A stretch of 64,000 nucleotides of DNA from Bacteroidota bacterium (GTDB lineage: Bacteria > Bacteroidota > Bacteroidia > NS11-12g > UBA955): NCBI GenBank assembly GCA_963169345.1, contig CAUJCT010000047.1, positions 47,076-111,075 on the forward strand, written 5' to 3'. A model generated the notes under the pieces. It was not told where the DNA came from. It saw only the letters and a program-made list of their open reading frames with translations, and made no database searches. Both the position numbers and the translations under genes were made by a program. Positions 603 to 56,738 of the stretch are shown here, piece after piece (position 1 is the first letter of the stretch; every line of letters starts with the position of its first letter).

Positions 603-851
603 AGTTAATGAATTTATATATTTATTTTAATTAGACGTTAAATTTACCGAAAGAGTTGCAATTATTTGTTATTTATTTTGATTTTGTTTTATCAATCCAA
701 TTTTAATTTAAATTGCAATTTTTTGTTTGAAATGGTATTTTTCCTTGTAAGCTGTAAATTGAGATAACCTGTCAGGTCCCGAAATTTCTTTTTAAGAGTC
801 AAATATTCAGCGGGTTGCATCGTTTAATTGCAACCTGACAGGTTCAATTTT

Positions 852-8561: not shown

Positions 8562-8652
8562 TAGTGTTTGCAAAGGGTTAGATAAACTAAGCTCGAAATT
8601 TCCTAAAGGATTTATTCAACCTGGCAGGTTGAATAGTGTGAAAAAGTAAAGT

Positions 8653-8684
8653 GTTAAGTCGTTAAGTTGTTAAGTCGTTAAGTC
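8653..8684. repeat. (GTTAAGTC)4 imperfect 8-mer microsatellite
   Basis: gttaagtc gttaagtt gttaagtc gttaagtc, read directly. Confidence 0.9.
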
Positions 8685-8730
8685 GTAGAGCTTTTCTATA
8701 TTATTTAAGTTTTCCCTAATAAATCTGTGA

Positions 8731-8946
8731 CTTCCGTTTGCGCAAGCAAACCACTGGCCGTGTCAAGGGCCTTTTATATTTCCGTGTGTTTTGTGTTTTC
8801 TTTCCTCGTTCTGCGTTCTACCTCACGTTGGCATCTGCGAATTCCGTTTGCGCCAGCAAACCCCTGCCGTGTCAATCCCGTAGGTACGGGACAATTTCTG
8901 CGTTCTCTGCGTGTTCTGTCTCAGTTCTGTGTTCTAAATGACGAAG
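8731..8946 (+). repeat. two tandem ~106-bp units of the TTCCGTTTGCGCAAGCAAACC..TGCCGTGTCAA intergenic repeat family (8731-8836 and 8841-8946)
   Basis: Direct alignment to the copies at 35814-35920, 42984-43080 and 43135-43245. The second unit carries the TCCCGTA-GG-TACGGGA hairpin. Confidence 0.85.
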
Positions 8947-8952
8947 TTCCCC

Positions 8953-17296: not shown

Positions 17297-18208
17297 ATGG
17301 TTAGACCCCTACTTCCTATTCTCTTCTTATGTTTGTTTTCGATATTCGCTTGTAAAAAGAAGCAAGAGGATTATCCGAATAATGTACCTAAGAATTATGA
17401 CGATGTTTCCACCGTTAAGGTAGAAAATTATATCAATCGCATCTACATTGATTTACTTGGGCGAGAGCCATTGGATGCTGAAGTCGTGCGCGATTTGCAG
17501 ATTTTAAGAGATGGAAAACTTTCTTTCGATGTTCGGAAAACGATTATCAAAAGACTGATGACTGATACGACTTTCGTGGTAGGCGACTCATCTTATAAAA
17601 GAGCATATTATCAGAGAATATATGATTTGGCCAAGGCACGCTTACTGGAAGGGGCTTCTGACGGCGATTTTTATCAGCAAATTGGAATTGCGGAGTTTTC
17701 TTTAAAGGTATCCCGACTCAATGGCGATTCAATAGGTGTATACTCAGCGATGGCTACAATTGACAGATATAAAAATGTCATTAAATCCCGCCGTGAATAT
17801 CAACTCGGACTTATCAATATTGGTGAAATGTATGCGCGTATGCTGGACAATCCGATTTACGATATTATCAATATGAATTCACTCAATTTTGTCAATGCCT
17901 CATTTGATGATTTGTTTTTCAGATTCCCGACAAGAGACGAGTTTGAAATCGCTTATGGTATTATAGAAAATGGAACAGGCGGCGCTTTATTTGGCGGTTA
18001 CGCCTCAACAAAACCAGACTATTGCCGAGTCCTGGTCAATTCAAGAGAATTTCACGAAGGCATGATTAAGTGGGCTTATCTTACTTTAATAGGCCGTGAA
18101 CCTAATACTCAGGAATCATTTAACCTCATTCAGGATTATTATCTGACTGACGATTTTCAACAAGTTCAAATTAACATTTTAGCTACAGATGAATATGCGC
18201 ATTTTTAA
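17297..18208 (+). CDS. lipoprotein with two DUF1549-like (RIYIDLLGREP / LTLIGREPNTQE) motifs
   Basis: Lipobox LFSIFAC. Two repeated R-x-Y-x-D-L-x-G-R-E-P segments. First gene of a five-gene coupled operon. Confidence 0.55.
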   Translation: MVRPLLPILFLCLFSIFACKKKQEDYPNNVPKNYDDVSTVKVENYINRIYIDLLGREPLDAEVVRDLQILRDGKLSFDVRKTIIKRLMTDTTFVVGDSSYKRAYYQRIYDLAKARLLEGASDGDFYQQIGIAEFSLKVSRLNGDSIGVYSAMATIDRYKNVIKSRREYQLGLINIGEMYARMLDNPIYDIINMNSLNFVNASFDDLFFRFPTRDEFEIAYGIIENGTGGALFGGYASTKPDYCRVLVNSREFHEGMIKWAYLTLIGREPNTQESFNLIQDYYLTDDFQQVQINILATDEYAHF

Positions 18209-18689
18209 TACAGTTGGCGTTATGGCGCTTATAATGATATTGTCTGCCTGCAAGAAAAATACCGCTAATTACGGTGTAGTTCAGGTAAGCTCTAAAGGAA
18301 CCAATCTCAATAAAGACAAAGACAAATCAAATATTGAGTTTCATAGTATTTTATCGACCAATCTGTTTCAGAAACCTTCATCCATCAATGAATTGACAGC
18401 ATTAGACCGCGTTATTCAAAGTTGTGGTGACAAGGCTCTGATCAATGAGGTCATCATCAGCAATTACATGAATAAACCCAGTGTTAAATTACCAAGCAGA
18501 GCAATGATGGTAGATTCAACCGATCGTTTTATTGAGGAAACTTACATTAGATTTTTTATCAGAAGGCCAACAGTTGCGGAGATGACCTGGTTTAAAAATT
18601 TCATCAACGCTAATAAATCCAATCCCAATTTCAGACCGGAGCTGGTGTATACTGCTTTTGCAGCTTCAGATGAGTACATGTTTTATTAA
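18189..18689 (+). CDS. small lipoprotein, DUF1549 C-terminal-like motif
   Basis: Lipobox ILSAC. C-terminal motif YIRFFIRRPTVAEMTWFKNFI...ELVYTAFAASDEY. Overlaps the previous gene. Confidence 0.5.
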   Translation: MNMRIFNTVGVMALIMILSACKKNTANYGVVQVSSKGTNLNKDKDKSNIEFHSILSTNLFQKPSSINELTALDRVIQSCGDKALINEVIISNYMNKPSVKLPSRAMMVDSTDRFIEETYIRFFIRRPTVAEMTWFKNFINANKSNPNFRPELVYTAFAASDEYMFY

Positions 18690-18700
18690 ACAACATTATC

Positions 18701-20041
18701 ATGAAAAGAAGACAATTCGTAAAAAATGCAACGGCGCTCACAGCAGGCGGTTTGGTATTGCCTTACATTTTGCCATCCGGCAGATTATTTGCCCGCACCA
18801 ATGTGCCTAAAGCTGAATATGTGGTATTTGTAATGTTTGGTGGGGGACTGAGACAACAGGATTCAATCTTACAAAGATATTTGGCAGATAGCCAGGGATT
18901 CAATATTGAAGGCAATATACTTTACAACATTTTAGAAGGCGCAGCACCTGCATCAAAAATTGCTTATGGTACAACGCCTGCTGGTCAACCTAATGGCAGT
19001 CAGCCTATCCCTAAAATTTTATCTCAATCATTGCAAAAGCAAGGCACCATTTTCGCTGAAATGCGCGCTATTTCCGGTGGTCACTATGGTGGATGGAATT
19101 CTTTGATAACAGGAAGCAGGGTAGAAGGGCAGGGTTTAAAAGTTAGGCCAATCAATCCGACTGTGTTTGAATATGCCCGTAAATTTGGAGGCTTTAAAGC
19201 TACAGATGTTTGGTTCGTTGGCAATACCATCAGCAATTCTATTCCATTGCTCAATTCCAGTAAGCATCCTGATTTTGGTCTGGAATATGGCGCTAATTTT
19301 TTTGCACCAGGTGTAACATTTGGAGGTGATGGCATCGAAGCTTTGTCCAAAGCAAAAATCTATCATCCACAAGAGGAATTGGAACCTATGTATAAGATGA
19401 AAAATTTCCTCGACAATACATTCAATATCCGCAAAGGTGAAATGCCGGGTATTAAAAATACAGATGAGGAAAAAACTCAAATCAAGGAATTTATTTCAAA
19501 CACATTTCAAAGACAAGCTGCCGGACAGATTCCTATGCCGCCTGTATCGGGTGGTGATGGCACAACAATTGGTTATGCTGCCGAAGTATTGAGAGTGTTC
19601 AAACCAAAATTACTGGTGGTGAATTTAAGTAATATCGATGGCTGTCACAGCAACTTCACCGGTTATCTGCAAGCAATGCACAAGGCCGATCATGCTATGG
19701 GCTTTTTGTGGAATTACATACAAACCCAGATTCCTGAAATGAGCGGTAAAACCATCATGTTGTTTACCCCTGAGTGTGGTAGAAATCAACAACACAATCC
19801 AGTTCAGGACGAAAACGACTGGTATGGTTATGACCACGGTGATGCCAATTCTCTAAGAGTTTTTGGTGGTATGGTCGGTATGAATGTGCCTTCTAATTTA
19901 ATGATTGGCAATGAGAGTAATCCTATTGGAAAAGTAACGGATTTTAACTTGACTATAGCTGATATTTTAGGTTACAAGGACAATGTAAAATCTGCAGGTT
20001 TAATAGATCCGGAGGCAAAAAGTTTATTTGACAGAATATGA
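18701..20041 (+). CDS. twin-arginine (TAT) exported protein, DUF1501-like / alkaline-phosphatase-superfamily-like
   Basis: N-terminus MKRRQFVKNATALTAGGLVLP is a classic Tat signal. VVFVMFGGGLRQQDS resembles the DUF1501 N-terminal metal-site region. 446 aa. Confidence 0.5.
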   Translation: MKRRQFVKNATALTAGGLVLPYILPSGRLFARTNVPKAEYVVFVMFGGGLRQQDSILQRYLADSQGFNIEGNILYNILEGAAPASKIAYGTTPAGQPNGSQPIPKILSQSLQKQGTIFAEMRAISGGHYGGWNSLITGSRVEGQGLKVRPINPTVFEYARKFGGFKATDVWFVGNTISNSIPLLNSSKHPDFGLEYGANFFAPGVTFGGDGIEALSKAKIYHPQEELEPMYKMKNFLDNTFNIRKGEMPGIKNTDEEKTQIKEFISNTFQRQAAGQIPMPPVSGGDGTTIGYAAEVLRVFKPKLLVVNLSNIDGCHSNFTGYLQAMHKADHAMGFLWNYIQTQIPEMSGKTIMLFTPECGRNQQHNPVQDENDWYGYDHGDANSLRVFGGMVGMNVPSNLMIGNESNPIGKVTDFNLTIADILGYKDNVKSAGLIDPEAKSLFDRI

Positions 20042-20979
20042 GAAAACTGAGTTACTTCTTGCTGATTGTATTAAGCCTTGCTGCCTGTAAAAAGAAGAGC
20101 AGTGATAATCCTTATGATGATTGGCAAAATACTTCAAAAGATCCAGCTATATCCGATAAGCCTATTGATGCCAAATCTATACAGGGATTGCATAAAAACA
20201 TCTTTAAACCTACCTGTTCTAACAGTGGTTGTCATGATGGCAATTTCGAACCTGATTTCAGGTCAATTGAGAGTTCTTACAATTCCTTAATCAACAGATT
20301 GAGTACGAATACCGACCCCAATAATCCTCAGTACAGTAAAAGGGTAGTGCCGGGTAATGCAGGTATCAGTATGCTGTTACACAGAATCAAGGAATTTATT
20401 CCGGGTTCTCAGGGAAAAATGCCTCTCTCAGTAGATCCCGGTAGCGATTGGAATGCTAAAAAAGATCAATATATACAGGATATTACAGATTGGATTAACA
20501 ATGGAGCGAAAGACCAGTTTGGCAATAGTCCCGAATCTATCGACTTTAGTCCTCAACTGGGTGGACTCATCGTATTTGCAGATGGTTCACCAACTCCACT
20601 CTCTCATACCGGTTATAATCCTGTGACCGTTCCGGCAGGTACATCCACTATTAAGATTATGGTAGCCTATCTGGATGATAAAACAGCAGTTAAAAGTTTT
20701 GGAGAAACTAAAATCAATTTTACATTGAACCCTTATCAGTACGATAGTACCTGGCAGGTAATGGGGGTTGAAACCAATTCATTTACGGATAAAGGTATCA
20801 GTGGTGATAATATTGAATATTGGCACAGTATCACTCTTAATGTGGCAGATATTGGTGTTTCAGGAGATGTTTTGTGGGTGAGAACGGAGACTACTGATAA
20901 TGTCAATTTGCCATTGTTTATACCATCTCCAAGTACTCCGTTTAATTTCAAAAAATACTTTGCAATTCGTTTGAACTAA
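20038..20979 (+). CDS. lipoprotein with PSCyt-like (Planctomycete cytochrome-C-like) motif
   Basis: Lipobox SLAAC. Motif KPTCSNSGCHDG...SKRVVPGNAGISMLLHRI. Overlaps the upstream stop (ATGA). Confidence 0.5.
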   Translation: MRKLSYFLLIVLSLAACKKKSSDNPYDDWQNTSKDPAISDKPIDAKSIQGLHKNIFKPTCSNSGCHDGNFEPDFRSIESSYNSLINRLSTNTDPNNPQYSKRVVPGNAGISMLLHRIKEFIPGSQGKMPLSVDPGSDWNAKKDQYIQDITDWINNGAKDQFGNSPESIDFSPQLGGLIVFADGSPTPLSHTGYNPVTVPAGTSTIKIMVAYLDDKTAVKSFGETKINFTLNPYQYDSTWQVMGVETNSFTDKGISGDNIEYWHSITLNVADIGVSGDVLWVRTETTDNVNLPLFIPSPSTPFNFKKYFAIRLN

Positions 20980-21419
20980 TGAAGAAATTAAAACTCATAT
21001 CACTGTTTTTACCTGTTGCAATGCTTTGGGGCTGCAAGAAGGATAACAAAGCTGGCGCTGCTCCTACTATCAGTTTTATCAGTGTCAGTTCAGTTGATTT
21101 AAAAGAATACAAAGACAGTCTGACAATACTGATTTCATACTCTGATGCGGATGGAGATATAGGCCAGGATGACCCGGATATCAATGATCTTAAAGTTAAG
21201 GACAGAAGATTGAGTGAAGCCGATTATTATTTTGTAAAACCTCTTGCACCGCCAAATTCAAGCATTGCAATTAGCGGAACACTTGCTATTCAAATAAAAA
21301 ATACTTTCTTACTGGGTACAGGAAACAGCGAGATTACGCAGTTTGATATTCAGTTAAAAGACCGAGCCGGGCATTGGAGTAATACAGTCAATACACCGCA
21401 GATTACAATATCGAAGTGA
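20979..21419 (+). CDS. small lipoprotein, hypothetical
   Basis: Lipobox LWGC. 146 aa. Abuts the upstream gene and overlaps the downstream gene by 4 nt. Confidence 0.5.
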   Translation: MKKLKLISLFLPVAMLWGCKKDNKAGAAPTISFISVSSVDLKEYKDSLTILISYSDADGDIGQDDPDINDLKVKDRRLSEADYYFVKPLAPPNSSIAISGTLAIQIKNTFLLGTGNSEITQFDIQLKDRAGHWSNTVNTPQITISK

Positions 21420-24400
21420 GTCGTTTGATTTCCATAAAGGCAACAATGTTGACTATGATTTTTTGCATAGCGGGAGTTGCTTTGGGTCAGACTACCTATA
21501 AAATGGGCAATGGAAAAGTATATGCCTGTAAAGGAAAATTGACGGATAGCGAAGGGAATTTATCAGCTCCAAAGAAATATGCCAACAATGAGAATTACAT
21601 TTTTACGGTATGTGTAAAGGGTGCCAGTACAATCACCATCAAATTCAACGGGACATTCTGTACTGAGAGTATTTCTGATTTTCTTAAGGTTTACAAAGGG
21701 TCCGATACATCAGGTACTTTGTTGAGAACCTATTCAGGCACCATCAACTATCCAATTTCAATCAATGCCAGTGATACCTGTCTGACTTTTTATTTTCACT
21801 CTGACGCCAATATCGTATGTGATGGTTGGGATTTAGATTGGGAGGCCAAAATTACTTCAGTACCACAGCCTAAATTCAATCCTATCGCAGACCCCAACTG
21901 TAATTCAAATAAAATTAGAGTAACGCTGGATCAAAAGTTCAATTGTGATTCAGTCAAATCTTCTAACTTTAAATTAAGTGGAGCATTAAGCACTGCAATT
22001 GCATCGGTAACAGGGATTAACTGCGACTCAAAGAACGAAACAAATACATTTGATATCACTTTTGCATCTGGACTGAATAAAAGCGGCAATTATGCACTCG
22101 ATTTTACATCTTCATTCAAAGATGCCTGCGATAGTATCTGGACAATAAAAGCCAAATTGAATTTTAAGATTACCAATTGTCCGATTACGGTCGATTTGAA
22201 ATCTGATAAACTGATTATTTGTAAAGGCAGTTGTGCCAAATTAACAGCCGTAATAACAGGAGGCAATCCTTCAAATTATGCTTATACCTGGCTATCGGGT
22301 TCTTTGACTGGAGCCACGCCCAAAACGGTATGTCCGACTTCAGATACCAGGTATATACTACAGGTTTCTGATGGTGTTTCTGTCCCTGGTTCAGATACAG
22401 TTGATATCGTTGTTGCTGACCCACCCGTAGCTCAAAATGATACCACAGTTTGTCAATCAAGTTTACCATTTAATCTCACTGCGAGTCCTTCAGGCGGCAG
22501 CTGGTCAGGAACCGGTATCATCAATGCAGCGTCGGGTACATTTTCACCGGGAGTTTCAGGTGCTGGAACATTTAAAGCTTATTACACCATTGGTTCTTGC
22601 AGAGATTCTGTACTTGTAATAGTCAGAGCTATCAGTGCCGGAACACCTAATGCTGCTTGTCCAAATTCAGCGCCATTTATGGTGACAGGTTTTACTCCGG
22701 CTGGCGGTACCTGGTCGGGCCCGAATATTACCCCGGCAGGTTTGGTTACACCTACTTCTACTCCGGGATCTTTTGTAGTTACTTACACCTGGAATGGTTG
22801 CTCGAGTAATAAAACTATAAACATCGATGGCATTAATCTGGTCAAACATTTCGATACTTTATGTAAGTCGGTACAATACGATACTTTTAAATTTTCACCG
22901 CTGGGAGGCACCTGGTCTGGGCCAAACGTCACCAATCAAAGACTGGGAATTAACCGGCCTGTCTTAGCCGGAGCGGGAAATAAAATGTATATCTACACCA
23001 TTAATGGATGTAAGGATACTTTGAGAAGATTCATTCAGGATGTTGATGCAGGTCCTGATGAAATAGCCTGTCCGGATGCAGGTCAGAGAGTCTTATTAGG
23101 TGGTACGCCTGTAGGTGGAACATGGAAAGGTAAGGGTATACTGGATGCCAGTAACGGGGTGTTTGATGCCGACTCTTTTCAGGTTCCTGGTAAAGTGACT
23201 TTTGTACAAACAACCCTAACTTACACTGCAATTAATGGATGTAAGGATGATAAAATTGTGTATCTCCGTTATACAAAGTTTTATAAAGATACGGTAAAAA
23301 ATTGTGTCAGCGATACCGCCTATTTCATGCGCTATCAGTACTTGCAGAACGACCCCTGGAATGTTTTGTTTACAGGCAGTAAAGGCATTGTTGGTAATAC
23401 GGTTTACAATCAGAAATTCAATCCTTCACTTGCCGGAAGAGGCACTTACAACACCATCATTGCAGATGGAAATGGCTGTAAGGATACTCAAATTATCTAC
23501 GTCTATCCGCGTGCCAACATTCAAAAAGACACCTCGGTTTGTATTGCTGATAATCCGTTTCAATTGTTCAATGGCGCAGGTGCAGGTATCTTTAGTGGTA
23601 AAGGTATTACCAATTCCAATGGCACTTTCAGTCCGGCAACAGCAGGCGTTGGAACTCATCTGATATTTTTTTCTCAGGCAGGAAAATGTACGGATACTTT
23701 AAAAGTTACTGTTAAACCTTTACCTGTTGTTGTATTAAATGGATTGTTGTCAAATTATTGTTTGAGAGATACTGCTATTCCTTTGTTGATTTCACCTAAA
23801 GGAGGCACATTAACCGGCCCGGGATTAATTGATACCATCTTTAATCCAAAGCTCGCCGGTACGGGGTCGCATGTCATCACTTACAAAGTAGGAACAGGCA
23901 AATGTGTACATCAAATTTCAGTGAATATTGACATCAGTGATACATTAAGATTGAGTCTGGACGTAGATAAAGATACTATATGTATTGGAACACCGGTGAC
24001 CTTTAGTACCAACAGCAGCGGCGGACTTGGGGCATATAGTTTGAAATGGGCAAGTGGAGAATACAATGTTCAGAACATCTATACTTTCCCAAAACAAACA
24101 GTCACATACAGAGCGGTCTTAAGAGATGGATGCAGTGATTCAGTCGTCAGACAAGCAACAGTTTTTGTGCATCCGCAAATGTATGGGCAGATTAATACCA
24201 GTGCCATTCAATGTTACGGAAACAAAGGAACTGCCACATTAACCATGAGCGGAGCCGGTCCTTATACGTATTTGTGGAATACCATACCTGTTCAGACTAC
24301 GCCTTCCATTACGGCAAATGTTGGTACGACTTATAAGGTGAAAGTGACCAATTCAAAAACAGGCTGTACTTATGACACCCTGGCGACCATTCCGGGATAT

Positions 24401-24940
24401 CCAAGGATCAGGGCATACTTCGCAATTTCTCCATCCGGGCAGTGTATCTACAGCAACAATCCTGTTATACAGATCATCGATTTAAGTGAAGGCGGCTTAA
24501 CGGGCACCTGGCAATACGGTGATGGTACCCAGGAGCCTTATGTAGCGGGGGTTAATCCATCTCATACTTATCCCGGAGACACCGACCAATACACCATAAG
24601 ATTAATCATCAGCAACAATGGAGGCTGCTCAGACAGTTTCAATGTCAGCATTTGCGTTTTAGATACGGTTGCTTTGTTTATACCAACGAGTTTTACGCCC
24701 AATGACGACGGCAGTAACGATGTATTTAAAATTGAATCTGGCAATGTCGCAGCAGCTTACATTCAGATTTACAACCGATGGGGAGAGAAGGTATTCGACA
24801 CAGACAATCCTAAGCAAGGCTGGGATGGCACTTATGGCGGAAATATATGTCCGACAGACTATTACGTATACGTTATCAGGTACAAGGGCAAGAAAACACC
24901 GTGGAGGTATCTGCGGGGGTATTTGTATCTGGTAAGATAA
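21416..24940 (+). CDS. large (1174 aa) T9SS type-B (gliding-motility-associated) C-terminal domain protein with Ig-like/HYR-like repeats
   Basis: C-terminus FIPTSFTPNDDGSNDVFKIE...IQIYNRWGEKVF...QGWDGTYGGNICPTDYYVYVI is the canonical type-B CTD. Repeated GxWSGxGI modules. Probable true start is M at about 21446 with signal MLTMIFCIAGVALGQ. Confidence 0.8.
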   Translation: MSRLISIKATMLTMIFCIAGVALGQTTYKMGNGKVYACKGKLTDSEGNLSAPKKYANNENYIFTVCVKGASTITIKFNGTFCTESISDFLKVYKGSDTSGTLLRTYSGTINYPISINASDTCLTFYFHSDANIVCDGWDLDWEAKITSVPQPKFNPIADPNCNSNKIRVTLDQKFNCDSVKSSNFKLSGALSTAIASVTGINCDSKNETNTFDITFASGLNKSGNYALDFTSSFKDACDSIWTIKAKLNFKITNCPITVDLKSDKLIICKGSCAKLTAVITGGNPSNYAYTWLSGSLTGATPKTVCPTSDTRYILQVSDGVSVPGSDTVDIVVADPPVAQNDTTVCQSSLPFNLTASPSGGSWSGTGIINAASGTFSPGVSGAGTFKAYYTIGSCRDSVLVIVRAISAGTPNAACPNSAPFMVTGFTPAGGTWSGPNITPAGLVTPTSTPGSFVVTYTWNGCSSNKTINIDGINLVKHFDTLCKSVQYDTFKFSPLGGTWSGPNVTNQRLGINRPVLAGAGNKMYIYTINGCKDTLRRFIQDVDAGPDEIACPDAGQRVLLGGTPVGGTWKGKGILDASNGVFDADSFQVPGKVTFVQTTLTYTAINGCKDDKIVYLRYTKFYKDTVKNCVSDTAYFMRYQYLQNDPWNVLFTGSKGIVGNTVYNQKFNPSLAGRGTYNTIIADGNGCKDTQIIYVYPRANIQKDTSVCIADNPFQLFNGAGAGIFSGKGITNSNGTFSPATAGVGTHLIFFSQAGKCTDTLKVTVKPLPVVVLNGLLSNYCLRDTAIPLLISPKGGTLTGPGLIDTIFNPKLAGTGSHVITYKVGTGKCVHQISVNIDISDTLRLSLDVDKDTICIGTPVTFSTNSSGGLGAYSLKWASGEYNVQNIYTFPKQTVTYRAVLRDGCSDSVVRQATVFVHPQMYGQINTSAIQCYGNKGTATLTMSGAGPYTYLWNTIPVQTTPSITANVGTTYKVKVTNSKTGCTYDTLATIPGYPRIRAYFAISPSGQCIYSNNPVIQIIDLSEGGLTGTWQYGDGTQEPYVAGVNPSHTYPGDTDQYTIRLIISNNGGCSDSFNVSICVLDTVALFIPTSFTPNDDGSNDVFKIESGNVAAAYIQIYNRWGEKVFDTDNPKQGWDGTYGGNICPTDYYVYVIRYKGKKTPWRYLRGYLYLVR

Positions 24941-24942
24941 TG

Positions 24943-24966
24943 AACCTGTCAGGTTGGTTTTTATAA
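24943..24966 (+). terminator. stem-loop AACCTG-t-CAGGTT followed by GGTTTTT, 3 nt after the stop
   Basis: Palindrome plus T-run read directly. A second similar hairpin at 25010-25030 (ACCTG-a-CAGGT + TGTTTTG). Confidence 0.4.
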
Positions 24967-25290
24967 TTATAAGATGTTGATTATCAAAAAATAACAAATT
25001 ATTTTTTGGACCTGACAGGTTGTTTTGATTTACACCTCATTGCAAAAAAGTACCATTTCAAAAGAAAAACTACCATTTATCTAAAATGTGAAAAATAGGG
25101 AAGTTAAATTTGAGAGGCCAGGAGATTTTTTAACTTATTAAAATATGAGCCAAATATTCATTTTCAATGTTTTAGATTTAGTAAAGCAAAATGGAAGTTA
25201 ATCTGAATTTTTAAAAATTAAGGTTCAAAATAAATCCCTCTTTTTTTCGTTTTTAAGATTAAAGTACTATCTTCGTACTTTGTTTTTTGT

Positions 25291-35576: not shown

Positions 35577-35583
35577 AGAGGAG

Positions 35584-35724
35584 GCTGACGCTGCGCTGCT
35601 GAAAAGCTAAACGCAGCGCTGCTGAATTGCTTAAGGAAGCTGTTAAGTCGTATAGTCGTTAAGTCGAAAGGAATGCTAAACGCTGACGCTGCTGAAAAGC
35701 TAAACGCTGCGCTGCTGAATTGTT
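35584..35724. repeat. two ~45-bp direct repeats (GCTGACGCTGCGCTGCTGAAAAGCTAAACGCAGCGCTGCTGAATTG) flanking a (GTTAAGTC)-like 8-mer tract at 35642-35665
   Basis: Read directly. Each unit contains GCGCTGC/GCAGCGC inverted arms. Confidence 0.8.
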
Positions 35725-35813
35725 TCGCGGTGGTATTGTTTTATGGTAGAGATGTAGCGCAACTGCTTGCAGATGCGCTACGATGATCCACCTCCCGCAA
35801 TTTCTCCTTCCGT

Positions 35814-35997
35814 GCCTTCCGTTTGCGCAAGCAAACCATTGCCGTGTCAATCCCGTAGGTACGGGATAATCATTTCTGCGTTTTTTGCGTTTTCTTTCCT
35901 AGTTCTGCGTTCCACCTCCCCTCAGCTCCCCATCCCACAATCATCGTCCATTCGACTCACAAAACGACTTAACGACTAAACAACTTAACGACTTAAC
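35814..35997 (+). repeat. copy of the TTGCGCAA-hairpin repeat family plus an extended tail ending in an inverted (CGACTTAA)n tract (35964-35997)
   Basis: Aligns to the 8731-8946 and 42984-43245 copies. The tail CCTCCCCTCAGCTCCCCATCCCACAATCATCGTCC...GACTCAC is the reverse complement of 42757-42810. Confidence 0.85.
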
Positions 35998-36138
35998 ATC
36001 TCCCCCCATTTCTTATCAACCTCCTTAGGGGTTAATACCTCCAAAATTGTATTGATGTCATATCGTCCTTTTATGCCCGCTTATCAGCATTCTAACATTT
36101 GTTTATAAGTCCAAAATCGGAGTATGAAAGTGATATAT

Positions 36139-36146
36139 TACATTTG
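36139..36146 (+). promoter_or_regulatory. candidate Bacteroidetes -7 box TAcaTTTG, 32 nt upstream of the glmS ATG
   Basis: Matches the TAnnTTTG consensus of sigma-AB0 promoters. Confidence 0.3.
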
Positions 36147-36177
36147 CAATAAACACTTTAAATAAAGAAAAAGACAC

Positions 36178-41940: not shown

Positions 41941-42675
41941 TCAGTTTTTAACCCTCTGGAACCAGGCCTCTGTGATGATCTTTTTGAAGCGACGCTCTGA
42001 TTTAGAATCTTTGTTTAGCAAATTAACTTCAACTCTTATTCTGGCTTTGCGGTTCATAACCTCCAGAAGTTTCAGTTTAAAAGTATTGACTTCAATATTG
42101 CTGTCTTCATTTAGTTTAGTGGTGAAATACTTCTCCAGGTCATCAAAACTGCCCAGATGGTCAGCATCTATGCTCAACTCCATATTCACCTGTGTGCTGC
42201 CGGATTTGCTGTAATTGATGATGTCCTGACTCAGTAGATTGGTGTTCGGGACAAAGATAATGTCATCTTCTTCATTCAGAATCTGAACATTTAATAAACT
42301 GATGTGAATGATTTTGCCCTTATGTTCTCCAATTTTAATATGGTCGTTAATTGATATTTGATTATTGAACATCAATATCATCCCATTGATGGCATTGGAA
42401 ATATAATCTTTGGAAACGATGGCTATAGCAGCCGCAATGATGGAGATGGATGTAAAAAGTTCTTTAATATTGACCCGCATCACCACCATTATCAATAACA
42501 TCAAAAGTATAAACAGGAAGATGTAGTAGATGGTATTGATGCCAATTATAAAATTATCTTTTCCTTTAATCTTATTTCGTCTTCTGTAAACGAACAAGGT
42601 AAAGAACTTAAGCATGTAGAGACCTAAAATAAGTATAAGCAGGGGATAAGTCTTCGGATGGTCTTGCCAAAACAT
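41941..42675 (-). CDS. small-conductance mechanosensitive channel (MscS family)
   Basis: TM helices followed by DHIKIGEHKGKIIHISLLNVQILNEEDDIIFVPNTNLLSQDIINYS, the MscS beta-domain signature. Confidence 0.7.
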   Translation of the reverse strand: MFWQDHPKTYPLLILILGLYMLKFFTLFVYRRRNKIKGKDNFIIGINTIYYIFLFILLMLLIMVVMRVNIKELFTSISIIAAAIAIVSKDYISNAINGMILMFNNQISINDHIKIGEHKGKIIHISLLNVQILNEEDDIIFVPNTNLLSQDIINYSKSGSTQVNMELSIDADHLGSFDDLEKYFTTKLNEDSNIEVNTFKLKLLEVMNRKARIRVEVNLLNKDSKSERRFKKIITEAWFQRVKN

Positions 42676-42722
42676 AGAGCAAATTTAAGGAATTAGAAGG
42701 AAGTAATTAAAGTATGAGTTTT

Positions 42723-42754
42723 GTTAAGTCGTTAAGTCGTTAAGTCGTTAAGTC
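42723..42754. repeat. (GTTAAGTC)4 perfect 8-mer microsatellite, 48-79 bp upstream of the mscS-like start
   Basis: Read directly. Confidence 0.95.
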
Positions 42755-42756
42755 GT

Positions 42757-42885
42757 GGGGTGAGTCATAGGGACGATGATTGAGGAATGGGGAGTTGAAG
42801 AGAAGTGGAACGCAGAACAAAGGCGGAACGCACAGAAAACGCAGAAAATGTTAAGGCCTTTGACGCGGCGGTTGCTAAAGCAACT
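42757..42885 (-). repeat. inverted, degenerate copy of the TTGCGCAA-hairpin repeat family
   Basis: GTGAGTCATAGGGACGATGATTGAGGAATGGGGAG...GGAACGCAGAAC...TTGACGCGGCGGTTGCTAAAGCAAC is the reverse complement of the 35814-35960 architecture. Confidence 0.7.
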
Positions 42886-42983
42886 TAATACACAGAAATG
42901 GGCAGAACACACTGATGGGGAAGCTTTGCCGGTAAGTCGTAATGCTTGTCGATAGACTTTATTCTTCCCGCAATCCTTCTGCG

Positions 42984-43245
42984 CCTTCCGTTTGCGCACG
43001 TAAACCCCTGCCGTGTCAAAGGCCAATAAATTTTCTGTGTGTTTTGCGTGTTCTTACCCAGTTCTGTGTTCTACCTCCCCATCTACCGCGACACAATTCA
43101 GCTATTCAGCTATTCAGCCTTTCAGCCGTTCCCCTTCTGCGCCTTCCTGTTTGCGCAAGCAAACCCCTGCCGTGTCAAAGGCCATAAAATTTTCTGTGTG
43201 TTTCGCGAATTCTGTTCTTGTTCTGTGTTCTACTAACGGAAGCTT
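42984..43245 (+). repeat. two forward copies of the repeat family (42984-43080, 43135-43245) separated by an (ATTCAGCT)3-4 8-mer tract at 43096-43127
   Basis: CCTTCCGTTTGCGCACGTAAACCCCTGCCGTGTCAAAGGCC... and CCTTCCTGTTTGCGCAAGCAAACCCCTGCCGTGTCAAAGGCC..., read directly. Confidence 0.85.
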
Positions 43246-43256
43246 ATTAATAATCT

Positions 43257-53790: not shown

Positions 53791-53996
53791 CAACCTGCCT
53801 TAAAATTCAACCTGGCAGGTTAAATGTACCTAAATCTCAAATATTCAGCGTTTCAATTCGTTAAAATAATTAAGTCAACCTAGCAGGTTAAATTTCCGAA
53901 AGTTCTAAGTCAACCTAGCAGGTTAAATGCACCTAACCCTCAAATAAGCAGCATTCTAATTCGTTAAAATAATTAAGTCAACCTGCCAGGTTGATT
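53791..53996. repeat. tandem array of four to five AACCTGNCAGGTT palindromes (53809, 53877, 53912, 53980, plus a half-site at 53793) in a duplicated ~103-bp unit
   Basis: Read directly. The 55-bp spacers GGTTAAATG(T/C)ACCTAA...CGTTAAAATAATTAAGTCAACCT are about 85% identical. Confidence 0.85.
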
Positions 53997-54069: not shown

Positions 54070-54185
54070 CCATTCACTTATCCAGAAAGACGGAGGGAAT
54101 TGACCCGTTGATGTCTTGACAACCTAGTCCTGCGCGCAGGAAAAAGGTGCCAAATTCAACCGCTAACGCGGAAAGATAAGTTAGA
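54070..54185 (+). promoter_or_regulatory. SAM-I (S-box) riboswitch aptamer
   Basis: CTTATCCAGAAAGACGGAGGGAATTGACCCGTTGATGTCTTGACAACC...GGTGCCAAATTCAACCGCTAACGCGGAAAGATAAG matches the SAM-I consensus. The P1 strands are CTTATC 54078-54083 and GATAAG 54175-54180. The kink-turn and pseudoknot elements are present. Located upstream of a Cys/Met PLP enzyme plus hom. Confidence 0.85.
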
Positions 54186-54331: not shown

Positions 54332-55498
54332 ATGAAAGAAACAAGTTCAATTTTACACGCTATCCCGGTCGACCCGCTCACCGGTGCAGTCTCCGTACCC
54401 ATCTATCAAACCTCTACATTCGTGCAGGATGCTCCGGGTGTCAACAAAGGTTTTGATTATGCCCGAACCAATAACCCTACAAGACAAGTGTTCGAAAACC
54501 TTATCGCTCAACTCGAAGGTGGTGCTAAAGGTATCGCTTTTGCCAGTGGTCTCGCCGCTATTGATGCCGTTCTTAAACTTTTGGAAGCAGGCGATGAAAT
54601 CATTGCCATCGACGATATCTACGGTGGTGCTTTCCGTCAGTTCACTCATGTCTATCAGAAATTCGGTATCAAAGTGCATTATGTCGATGTTTCAATACCT
54701 GAGAATATCATCGATTACATAACACCTAAAACCAAATTGCTCTGGATTGAAACACCCACAAACCCTACGCTTAAAATTGCTGATTTAAAAACGCTGGGTT
54801 CTATTGCTCAATCTTTTAATTTGCTGTTTTGTGTCGACAATACTTTCGCTTCTCCGGTATTGCAAAAACCACTGAGTCTTGGTGCCGATATCGTTATTCA
54901 CAGTGCAACTAAATATCTTGGGGGACACAGTGATTTAATCGCAGGTGCTGTTGTAACCAAAACGGATGAACTGGGCGATAAAATAAAATTCATTCAAAAT
55001 GCCTCTGGTGCTATTCTGTCTCCATTCGATTCATGGTTGTTAATTCGGGGTATTGAAACTCTGCATCTTCGGGTTTTCAAGCATGCTGAGAATGCACTCA
55101 AAGTTGCTCAGTTTCTTAATCAATCTGAGCTGATTCGAAACGTGTATTATCCAGGTCTCCCGAACCATCTTGGACATCAAATTGCCGCTTCGCAAATGCT
55201 GGCTTTTGGTGGTGTCCTGAGTTTCGATTTTCACGATGACGACAAAGAGCTTGCTCTGGCGTTTTTAAAACATTTGAAGTTGTTTAAACTGGCTGAAAGT
55301 CTGGGAGGAGCAAAGAGTCTTTGTTGTCTGCCTTCTGAAATGACACATAAATCTATTCCTCGCGAAAAGCGTCTGTCTTCGGGTGTTAGTGATAGTTTGG
55401 TTCGTTTGTCGGTGGGGCTCGAAGATGCAGCCGACTTGACTGAAGATATACAAAGGGCTTTAAACAAATTAAAAATAAATACCATTCAACATGATTAA
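54332..55498 (+). CDS. Cys/Met-metabolism PLP-dependent enzyme (cystathionine gamma-synthase / beta-lyase family)
   Basis: 388 aa. YARTNNPTR. PLP-lysine region SATKYLGGHSDLIAG. Downstream of the SAM riboswitch. Confidence 0.85.
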   Translation: MKETSSILHAIPVDPLTGAVSVPIYQTSTFVQDAPGVNKGFDYARTNNPTRQVFENLIAQLEGGAKGIAFASGLAAIDAVLKLLEAGDEIIAIDDIYGGAFRQFTHVYQKFGIKVHYVDVSIPENIIDYITPKTKLLWIETPTNPTLKIADLKTLGSIAQSFNLLFCVDNTFASPVLQKPLSLGADIVIHSATKYLGGHSDLIAGAVVTKTDELGDKIKFIQNASGAILSPFDSWLLIRGIETLHLRVFKHAENALKVAQFLNQSELIRNVYYPGLPNHLGHQIAASQMLAFGGVLSFDFHDDDKELALAFLKHLKLFKLAESLGGAKSLCCLPSEMTHKSIPREKRLSSGVSDSLVRLSVGLEDAADLTEDIQRALNKLKINTIQHD

Positions 55499-56738
55499 GA
55501 GAAAACAATTACATATAGGTCTTTTCGGCTTTGGCTGTGTAGGTAAAGGACTTTATGATGTTCTGAACTTAAGTAAGCACCCCTGTGCCGAAATTGTAAA
55601 GATATGCGTCAAGGACAAAACTAAGGACAGGGGAGTAGCAAAGGATCTCATCACCTTTGATAAACATGAAATACTCAACGATGATTCGGTCAATTTAGTT
55701 GTCGAATTAATAGACGATTCGGAGGAAGCTTTTGATATTGTTAAGAAGGCCTTACTCGCCGGGAAGTCGGTGGTAACTGCCAATAAAAAGATGATAGCTG
55801 AACATTTTGATGATTTACTCAGTTTACAGGCTTCCACCGGTCAGGCATTGCTCTATGAAGCTGCGGCTTGCGCCAGTATTCCAATTATTCGAAATCTGGA
55901 AGAATACTACGATACAGACATTCTGAATCGCATAGAAGGTATCATCAATGGCAGCACAAATTACATACTGACGCGTTCGCTCAACGAAGGTTTAAGCTAT
56001 AAGGAGGCATTGCAAATCGCTCAACAATTAGGGTATGCCGAATCAAATCCGGGTCTGGATGTGGAAGGACACGATGCCGCTAACAAACTGTCGATTCTGT
56101 CTGCTCATGCTTTTGGCCGTTTTATTTTACCTGAGGATTTGCCCAGAACAGGTATTCAAAATATCACATCTGCTGAATTGAAATTTGCAAGACAAAACAA
56201 CTGGAAAATCAAATTGCTTGCAAAAGCTTATAAAACCAGCGAGGGACTTACAGCTTTTGTTATGCCTTCTTATGTCGATGATGATTCAGCTTTGTACAAA
56301 GTGGATGATGTATTCAATGGTGTTCAGACTGAAACAGTGTTCGCAGATAAACAGTTCTTTTCGGGCAGGGGAGCAGGTGCCTTTCCTACAGCTTCAGCAG
56401 TCTTAAGCGATATTTCGGCACTGAGTTACGATTACCGCTATGAATACAAAAAATTGAATCAGGGAAAGGATATTCCTTTGATAGATGATGTCATTCCGGT
56501 TTATTTGCGCAGCGAAGATGTCGATGAGTCTGTTTTGAGTGACAGTTTTGAACATATTTTTGAAGTTTTTAAATCAGGAAACCGATTACATATCTGCGGT
56601 CAGATAAAACTTAAGACAATCTTCACATGGTTGAAAACACATCCCAATATGGCAGTATTACATTTGCCTGAAACTTATGTAGAGATAAATTCGAAGGGAT
56701 TACCGATACTTGAATTAGAAAACTTATCTGAATTATGA
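55491..56738 (+). CDS. hom: homoserine dehydrogenase
   Basis: N-terminal Rossmann fold IGLFGFGCVGKG. Catalytic region NGSTNYIL...GYAESNPGLDVEGHDAANKLSILSAHAFG. Overlaps the upstream gene by 8 nt. Confidence 0.85.
   Translation: MIKRKQLHIGLFGFGCVGKGLYDVLNLSKHPCAEIVKICVKDKTKDRGVAKDLITFDKHEILNDDSVNLVVELIDDSEEAFDIVKKALLAGKSVVTANKKMIAEHFDDLLSLQASTGQALLYEAAACASIPIIRNLEEYYDTDILNRIEGIINGSTNYILTRSLNEGLSYKEALQIAQQLGYAESNPGLDVEGHDAANKLSILSAHAFGRFILPEDLPRTGIQNITSAELKFARQNNWKIKLLAKAYKTSEGLTAFVMPSYVDDDSALYKVDDVFNGVQTETVFADKQFFSGRGAGAFPTASAVLSDISALSYDYRYEYKKLNQGKDIPLIDDVIPVYLRSEDVDESVLSDSFEHIFEVFKSGNRLHICGQIKLKTIFTWLKTHPNMAVLHLPETYVEINSKGLPILELENLSEL

Follow-up and report, generated by a model that had tools for sequence, protein, structure and literature searches.

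A mosaic family of intergenic repeats in an uncultured Bacteroidia species

Six copies of a repeat unit lie in three intergenic gaps

The stretch of DNA analysed here (the window; 64,000 nt of contig CAUJCT010000047.1) contains six copies of a unit of ~105–125 nt at three intergenic loci, named A, B and C (Table 1). The same unit was recovered independently by repeat finding, by TRF and by alignment of the six sequences, and an nhmmer profile built from the six detected each of them with E-values of 1e-22 to 1e-34 and no further copy in the 64-kb window. All copies proposed in a first-pass annotation were found by nhmmer and repeat finding at about their proposed positions, and locus A has the layout described there, with a (GTTAAGTC)4 tract and two tandem units between convergent genes; a linker of 40 nt separates the tract from the units. 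Units are single or arranged head-to-tail (A1-A2 and C1-C2, the latter with a tandem period of 159 nt), and the sole opposed pair, Cinv and C1, lies head-to-head ~100 nt apart. The constituent motifs are strongly over-represented in the window, with five matches to CCGTGTCAA against 0.37 expected (0 of 100 shuffles reached five), 12 matches to the GTTAAGTC array against 0.43 expected and 15 occurrences of TTCTGYGT against 4.1 expected.

The first-pass claim that the copies are always intergenic is correct. Every copy in the window lies between real genes, most of which have Pfam or synteny support, and the neighbours have housekeeping functions (accC, glmS, GDH, MscS and a sugar transferase). 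A seventh copy was identified 4.4 kb to the left of the window, at the end of a Logan contig from the same strain. This copy, at a locus named D, is in reversed orientation, includes hairpin 2 (see below) and lies downstream of a gene for a metallo-beta-lactamase-fold protein, and the family is therefore not unique to the three loci of the window; such uniqueness had been named in the first-pass annotation as part of what would refute it. At three of the four loci a convergent gene has its stop codon 6–55 nt from the 3’ end of a unit; A2 ends 6 nt short of the stop codon of a 1743-aa gene (8953) and C2 ends 14 nt short of that of the Bac_transf gene (43257). No transposase or recombinase gene is present in the 64-kb window or in ~14 kb of adjoining sequence. 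Extrapolation from four loci in the ~78 kb of sequence seen gives ~100–200 loci per genome, an order-of-magnitude figure that carries much uncertainty.

Table 1. Features of the repeat loci in the window (positions from the first nucleotide of the window)
Feature	Position	Strand	Details
Locus A gap	8562-8952		Between convergent genes
Locus A (GTTAAGTC)4 array	8653..8686	+	One repeat GTTAAGTT; TRF period 8, 4.9 copies; family D1
Locus A left linker	8687..8727	+	From array to unit; common to the linker before C1 (42946-42980)
nhmmer match A1	8707-8830	+	E 2.6e-31
Unit A1 (GGGCC variant)	8728..8830	+	Hairpin 1 8736-8751; GCCGTGTCAA 8757-8766; TTCTGYGT-rich 3’ tract
Unit A2 (hairpin-2 variant)	8832..8947	+	nhmmer E 7e-29; hairpin 1 8846-8861; GCCGTGTCAA 8866-8875; TCCCGTAGGTACGGGA 8876-8891
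Locus B gap	35577-36177		Between the accB-accC-X operon and glmS
Locus B GCTGAA-type module	35594..35725	+	Family D7; 39-nt direct repeat 35594-35632/35687-35725, 95%
Locus B degenerate GTTAAGTC array	35642-35665	+	Inside the D7 repeat pair; D1; TRF
Unit B (hairpin-2 variant)	35787..35924	+	nhmmer E 1.8e-30; hairpin 1 35821-35836; GCCGTGTCAA 35841-35850; hairpin 2 35851-35866
Locus B right linker (CTCCCCATCCCACAATCATCGTCC...), then inverted (GTTAAGTC)4-5 array	35925..35997	-	Array 35958-35997; I1, I2, I4; TRF
Locus C gap	42676-43256		Between the 3’ end of the Bac_transf sugar transferase gene and the 5’ end of the MscS-type channel gene
Locus C perfect (GTTAAGTC)4 array	42723..42756	+	TRF 100% matches
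Right linker and unit Cinv (divergent subfamily)	42757..42905	-	Hairpin GTTGC-TTTA-GCAAC 42871-42884; GCCGCGTCAA 42860-42869
nhmmer match Cinv	42796-42905	-	E 4e-22
C1 region	42930..43081	+	Degenerate array remnant (CGGTAAGTCGTAATGC), left linker, then unit C1; hairpin 1 42990-43005 with G-T wobble; GCCGTGTCAA 43010-43019
nhmmer match C1	42957-43081	+	E 1.6e-34
(CAGCTATT)n array	43095..43126	+	Between C1 and C2; 0 expected by chance
nhmmer match C2	43114-43242	+	E 2.6e-34
Unit C2	43128..43242	+	Hairpin 1 43149-43164; GCCGTGTCAA 43169-43178

Mosaic context of the unit

The unit is embedded in a longer mosaic that also includes arrays of 8-nt repeats (GTTAAGTC and CAGCTATT) and two shared linkers, which agrees with the composite nature first proposed for it. 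The full element consists of a (GTTAAGTC)n array, a left linker, the unit, a right linker and an inverted (GTTAAGTC)n array in that order, and is complete only at locus B, with loci A and C representing partial, tandem or head-to-head versions. The GTTAAGTC array had been noted for locus A alone but arrays are present at all three loci, and that of locus C begins 48 nt upstream of the MscS start codon. The left linker common to A1 and C1 extends back to the GTTAAGTC array, as seen in direct-repeat family D6 (8676-8756 against 42930-43010, 73%). The right linker (CTCCCCATYCCWCAATCATCGTCC...) is common to B and Cinv and runs into the inverted GTTAAGTC array, and in inverted repeat I1 (126 nt, 82%) the right linker and array together with part of unit B match 42722-42847 reversed. 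The CAGCTATT module is the reverse complement of the GCTGAAnn module; these arrays are optional, and the same module is found at other loci in other strains.

The unit itself is made up of a 37-nt core, an optional 16-nt palindrome (TCCCGTAGGTACGGGA; hairpin 2) and a ~50-nt TTCTGYGT-rich tract that forms its own 3’ half. The core comprises a hairpin, GTTTGC-N4-GYAAAC (hairpin 1), a spacer of ~6 nt and the block GCCGYGTCAA, and aligns as CTTCC-GTTTGC-N4-GYAAAC-CCNCTG-CCGTGTCAA. Mean pairwise identity among the five forward copies is 92.6% over the core, 77% over the 3’ tract and 47% over the upstream flank, with GCCGYGTCAA the most conserved block of all. Hairpin 2 is an insert present in A2, B and copy D.

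The stem of hairpin 1, GTTTGC/G(C/T)AAAC, is kept in all five forward copies, and the stem of Cinv (GTTGC/GCAAC) is the forward stem minus one T-A pair. The loop varies (GCAA, GCCA or GCAC, and TTTA in Cinv), and the sole stem change among the forward-type copies is one-sided, from G-C to a G-U wobble in C1. The TTGCGCAA palindrome, which the first-pass annotation had singled out, is broken in A2 (TTGCGCCA) and C1 (TTGCGCAC) and missing from Cinv. Because the stem is kept where this palindrome is broken, the hairpin rather than TTGCGCAA is the conserved feature. The strong conservation of the core is also compatible with a host function, as a protein-binding site or as an RNA or DNA hairpin.

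The family is non-coding, as had been suggested. No frame is open across all copies, since every reading frame contains stops in some of them and the open frame varies from copy to copy, and the six-frame peptides of all six copies had no match among 5.8 billion proteins. Coding sequence was ruled out on the inconsistency of the frames. Mechanical ORFs do cross the units, as the first-pass annotation had said of its phantom ORFs, but no gene is called there on public contigs covering parts of the repeats. Three further classes were set aside. ARAGORN identified no tRNA- or tmRNA-derived element; template and variable repeats of a DGR were ruled out, with no reverse transcriptase and all copies intergenic; and integron attC sites were ruled out, as the flanking genes are syntenic housekeeping genes.

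Occurrence outside the window

The family has been seen only in this one uncultured Bacteroidia species. Relatives with GlmS proteins 92–99% identical and DNA ~75–82% identical retain synteny over >15 kb, and no unit, array or linker is present in these syntenic sequences. Where the window has a repeat block of 446 nt at locus B, the relative L029 has 131 nt of plain sequence, and the 580 nt of locus C correspond to ~0 nt in L009, in which the MscS gene is oppositely oriented. A search of the relatives’ orthologous intergenic DNA for remnants of the family returned only matches of 8–17 nt with E > 0.005; among these, an occurrence of TTGACACGG within a terminator hairpin of L013 was judged coincidental.

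Scans of 185,579 GTDB species genomes and of 241 million JGI metagenome records, both of which demanded the exact core pattern, each gave one match that was attributed to chance and had no similarity beyond the pattern; the chance match L002 from the core pattern scans lies in apparently coding sequence. Equally exact scans of IMG/VR for the core, and scans for (GTTAAGTC)3, found none, nor did BLAST against plasmids and phages or a literature search for the motif strings. With no counterpart in Rfam, in the plasmid and phage searches, in the pattern scans of the three contig collections or in the literature, the sequence family is undescribed, as originally claimed, but its kind is familiar. 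Short-read contigs of this organism stop at the repeats (at 8641, 8812, 35840/35846 and 42751), so that collections based on metagenome-assembled genomes (MAGs) under-represent the family and absence from them is weak evidence.

Repeat loci differ between closely related strains

To the window were compared contigs of other samples whose flanking genes are 97.8–99.4% identical to it. Loci C and D, two of the four, differ in unit number and module content between strains that are ~98–99% identical in their flanks. At locus C, contigs L021 (ERR7850091) and L022 (ENA megahit) carry one forward unit in place of C1, the (CAGCTATT)n array and C2. This single unit is a chimera of C1 and C2, as is expected from unequal recombination between tandem copies. 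In L022 the (GTTAAGTC)4 array is missing as well, and a further, partial copy of Cinv is present. Its Cinv region is 88% identical to that of the window, while its flanks are 98.6% identical. The differences are concentrated in the TTCTGYGT tract, which resembles that of copy D; this clustering and the likeness to copy D suggest patchy gene conversion.

The left edge of locus C exists as two alleles, one with the GTTAAGTC array and one with GCTGAA arrays (the ERR7850091/92 strain), with the point of divergence 27 nt upstream of the start codon of MscS. Similarly, locus D has a unit in the strain of the window and a (GCTGAAnn)4 module in a 98.6% identical strain, with the divergence beginning directly after the stop codon. 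Instability is not universal. Unit A2 of locus A is unchanged between strains: where the flanks have diverged by 1.2% it is 100% identical across 141 nt, and in one strain with flanks diverged by 2.2% it is so across 89 nt.

The nature of the family

The elements are modular in anatomy, are confined to intergenic DNA near gene 3’ ends, are absent from related species and turn over their modules fast. Many bacterial lineages carry interspersed mosaic repeats of their own. We favour, with a probability of roughly 0.6, the reading that the present family is a mosaic repeat, lineage-specific, non-coding and non-autonomous, of the same general kind as BIME/REP, BOX and MIRU. The family falls short of the definitions of REP, MITE, MIRU and any Rfam family, and is therefore filed in the broad class of mosaic repeats and not in any of those families. 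The first-pass description as REP/MITE-like is apt if taken loosely to mean an interspersed mosaic repeat, while strict membership of either group fails on its defining features.

As a classical MITE, the element would be a deletion derivative of an insertion sequence that is mobilized in trans by a DDE transposase, and its terminal inverted repeats would be the inverted (GTTAAGTC)n arrays. Locus B offers the best case for this, since its inverted GTTAAGTC arrays (35637-35666/35965-35994, 87% complementary; I4) flank 298 nt that contain one unit. The resulting size of ~360 nt is typical of MITEs, and presence or absence of the repeats varies between strains and relatives. However, inverted arrays are found at locus B only and not at every copy; at locus A a single array precedes two head-to-tail units, and the arrays of locus C are in direct orientation. 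The bases adjoining the locus B arrays (AAGCT... and ATCTC...) are not duplicated, and no target duplication is visible at this locus when judged against empty sites from ~75–82% identical relatives or from strains with a different mosaic. The unit ends carry TTCTGYG motifs in direct rather than inverted orientation, and the window and adjoining contigs contain no transposase. A classical MITE is therefore considered improbable.

A REP or REPIN family is equally improbable. Under this explanation the genome would encode, once and at another site, a RAYT (an IS200/IS605-like Y1 HUH transposase) that recognises the core hairpin in single-stranded DNA. The best conserved part is indeed a short imperfect palindrome, with the stem kept while the loop varies, the copies are intergenic and adjoin gene 3’ ends, and the mosaic organisation is like that of BIMEs. 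The definition of a REP calls for an imperfect palindrome of 20–40 nt whose 5’ end carries a conserved GT(A/G)G tetranucleotide. Hairpin 1, by comparison, has 16 nt and lies between CTTCC and CC(N)CTG; neither orientation shows a GTAG-type tetranucleotide beside it, and GTAG is present only within the optional hairpin 2. Additionally, the copies are without the inverted-doublet arrangement, the unit exceeds 100 nt and has long non-palindromic stretches, and the ~78 kb examined contain no Y1 transposase.

The structured RNA that the first-pass annotation had suggested, whether a small RNA or a cis-acting family of 3’-UTR or leader structures that acts through the conserved hairpins, is clearly less probable still. 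Hairpin 1 is present in all copies, including Cinv, where the lost T-A pair is gone from both arms, and at three of the four loci the 3’ UTR of a convergent gene would include the unit as its reverse complement. Forward-strand folding is better than that of shuffled sequences for B (z = -3.2) and C2 (z = -2.2), but the other four copies in forward orientation, and all six in reverse, give z from -1.8 to +0.7. A hairpin of 5–6 bp is all the pairing that the copies have in common, and the one stem change among forward-type copies is one-sided. At the gathering threshold, Rfam detects only a SAM riboswitch elsewhere in the window and none at the repeats, and E-value scans of the three loci gave only sub-threshold, chance-level matches, the best being ylbH in one copy (22.5 bits, where 50 are required). 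The units contain no sigma-70-type promoter or intrinsic terminator, nor, on direct reading of the sequence, a Bacteroidetes-type TAnnTTTG box. Their orientation relative to the neighbouring genes is inconsistent, and unit number and content vary between near-identical strains, two of the four loci being affected.

Of similarly low probability is a role as regulatory DNA, with the arrays and the core serving as binding sites or with the inverted arrays forming an invertible, phase-variable switch for adjacent genes such as glmS or MscS. The inverted arrays upstream of glmS have inverton-like dimensions, the alleles of locus C diverge within the likely promoter region of MscS, and GCCGYGTCAA is more conserved than any other block. 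The opposite orientation at locus B was, however, not seen in contigs from many samples, and the contigs that enter this locus match the window in its own orientation at 100% identity (L028 up to 35846 and L016 from 35840). The Bacteroidetes-type -7 boxes of both genes lie outside the repeats, that of glmS (TAcaTTTG) being conserved in L010, L013 and L029 and that of MscS reading TAAATTTG, and the segment flanked by inverted repeats at locus B contains no TAnnTTTG box. Locus A lies between convergent genes, where there is no initiation to regulate, and a period of 8 nt would put successive sites off one face of the helix. An assembly artefact or chance similarity has a negligible probability: short-read contigs do break at repeats, but independent assemblies of several studies, namely Logan contigs (ERR10643333-37/44 and SRR14271359) and an ENA megahit contig, reproduce parts of the units base for base, and the motif and profile statistics exclude chance.

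How a lineage-specific mosaic repeat of this kind would spread and change can be outlined from the copies and their alleles. Whole units and arrays are gained and lost at loci, in keeping with direct repeats as the probable source of local change, whether by unequal homologous recombination or by slippage during replication. Patches also appear to be exchanged between dispersed copies in a manner that looks like gene conversion. Gain, loss and patch exchange would together lead to the different alleles of loci C and D in strains with 98–99% identical flanks. That the core is much better conserved than the rest of the unit suggests recognition by a trans-acting protein, which could read the core as a duplex or as a hairpin in single-stranded DNA and might be a transposase or recombinase whose gene lies in another part of the genome. 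The copies may alternatively be homogenised through recombination. The effect on the host is presumably mostly neutral, with the elements outside the -7 promoter boxes of glmS and MscS, and at most the hairpins might act as 3’-end stabilisers for the abutting convergent genes. More speculatively, and with the odds well against it, the core and the 8-nt-array ends may define a new non-autonomous mobile element that is moved or copied by a putative hairpin- or site-specific enzyme.

If this mobile-element proposal were true, the active element would render intergenic DNA hypervariable among members of a species, and MAG assemblies from short reads would be systematically broken by it. A dedicated enzyme recognising the core would represent a new mobile-repeat system for the Bacteroidota, in which, to our knowledge, REP/BIME-like elements are poorly described; without such an enzyme, the family is an ordinary lineage-specific repeat. 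Interest would rise if the genome showed hundreds of copies and an associated enzyme, or if transcripts revealed a processed RNA. Many public metagenomes contain this uncultured Bacteroidia species, for which the repeats offer ready, VNTR-like strain markers; the repeats also explain the fixed end points of its short-read assemblies, such as 8641, 8812 and 35840. ORFs that cross the units should stay out of gene annotation.

Comparison with known repeat systems

The Correia elements (NEMIS) of Neisseria resemble the present family in their size of 100–160 nt, abundance, intergenic location and strain differences next to genes. None of their further hallmarks was found here, whether the 26-nt terminal inverted repeats, the TA target duplication, the functional promoters or the IHF site. 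BrickBuilt of Porphyromonas gingivalis, a MITE that encloses a minisatellite and has defined terminal inverted repeats and a 23-nt brick, is likewise a non-autonomous, intergenic and strain-variable element of the Bacteroidota that combines unique segments with short tandem repeats. By description it is set apart from the present family, in which the 8-mer arrays are peripheral and inverted ends occur at one locus only.

The MIRU/VNTR loci of Mycobacterium tuberculosis share with this family the tandem units, of ~50–100 nt, at dispersed intergenic loci and a unit number that varies between strains, as with C1 and C2 in the window against one unit in L021 and L022. MIRUs, however, lie within operons and have small ORFs coupled to the flanking genes, whereas the present units lie 6–14 nt from convergent stop codons, do not overlap gene ends and have no conserved frame. 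BOX elements of Streptococcus pneumoniae (boxA-(boxB)n-boxC) are also modular composite repeats, of 100–300 nt with variable internal modules, and are dispersed in intergenic DNA with no coding capacity and no known transposase. They belong to a different phylum and have a different sequence, and their order is fixed as A-B-C with predicted extended stem-loops, in contrast to the single 6-bp hairpin and looser order seen here.

BIMEs, the REP-built mosaics of Enterobacteria, are like the present elements intergenic, often located at gene 3’ ends and non-coding. Both consist of a short conserved palindrome and other motifs in variable combinations and orientations, with a copy number per locus that varies between strains. 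The present family has no sequence relationship to BIMEs, no GTAG beside the main hairpin, no alternating inverted REPs and no linked RAYT, and is instead distinguished by its 8-nt tandem arrays and a pyrimidine-rich tract of ~50 nt.

Variation within and around the mosaic repeats

At locus B, which lies upstream of glmS, a 39-nt direct repeat whose copies are 95% identical brackets the left GTTAAGTC array, as if the array sat inside a 93-nt local duplication. Within the mosaic units themselves, many of the differences between copies of the TTCTGYGT tract, which forms the 3' half of the unit, are C/T changes at CpG (TTCTGCGT versus TTCTGTGT), as would be expected from deamination of methylated cytosine. 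At locus C, one end of an inverted segment abuts the repeats; this segment carries an MscS-type channel gene in the opposite orientation to that in three syntenic relatives (L009, L010 and L013).

A second repeat family and neighbouring features

The window also contains a second repeat family, separate from the mosaic repeat and consisting of the hairpin AACCTGNCAGGTT, which was found additionally on L039 and L040. It lies 2–56 nt downstream of stop codons, often with a T-run on its 3' side, and looks like a stereotyped terminator hairpin. At one site the hairpin forms a 103-nt tandem duplication. It also adjoins the mosaic family at locus A and at locus D, which lies 4.4 kb left of the window; beside locus A, a copy coincides with the contig break at 8641.

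Elsewhere, a SAM riboswitch precedes the genes for a Cys/Met-metabolism PLP enzyme and homoserine dehydrogenase. A block of five consecutive co-directional ORFs, none with a Pfam match, runs ahead of the gene for a 1174-aa CUB/PKD/CHU_C protein, a predicted substrate of type IX secretion. This block is conserved in strain contigs L048–L052.

Coordinates of features in the window and in related contigs
Feature	Contig	Position	Strand	Score
Hairpin AACCTGNCAGGTT	window	831-845, 8617-8631, 24942-24956, 25008-25022
Hairpin AACCTGNCAGGTT, tandem duplication	window	about 53807-53993
TTCTGYGT tracts compared	window	8778-8824, 8894-8940, 35872-35918, 43031-43077, 43190-43236
39-nt direct repeat	window	35594-35632, 35687-35725
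MscS-type channel gene	window	41941-42675
Five ORFs	window	17297-21419
CUB/PKD/CHU_C protein	window	21416-24940
SAM riboswitch RF00162	window	54075-54182	+	67.8 bits
Cys/Met-metabolism PLP enzyme	window	54332-55498
Homoserine dehydrogenase	window	55491-56738
TATATCC/TTTCTCC heptamers	L010	40-90
(CGTATCATAT)n array	L029	15900-15990
Terminator hairpin AACCCCATTGACACGGGGTTTTTTT	L013	9805-9835

Comparison with related species

In relative L013, the terminator hairpin AACCCCATTGACACGGGGTTTTTTT downstream of the 127-aa gene's orthologue includes the reverse complement of the mosaic unit's CCGTGTCAAT; this match, with an nhmmer E of 3, falls short of significance and is likely to be coincidental. Related species without the mosaic family carry short-period arrays of their own in intergenic DNA, upstream of glmS at a contig end in L010 and upstream of a Fic gene in L029, and the lineage may in general carry short tandem arrays.
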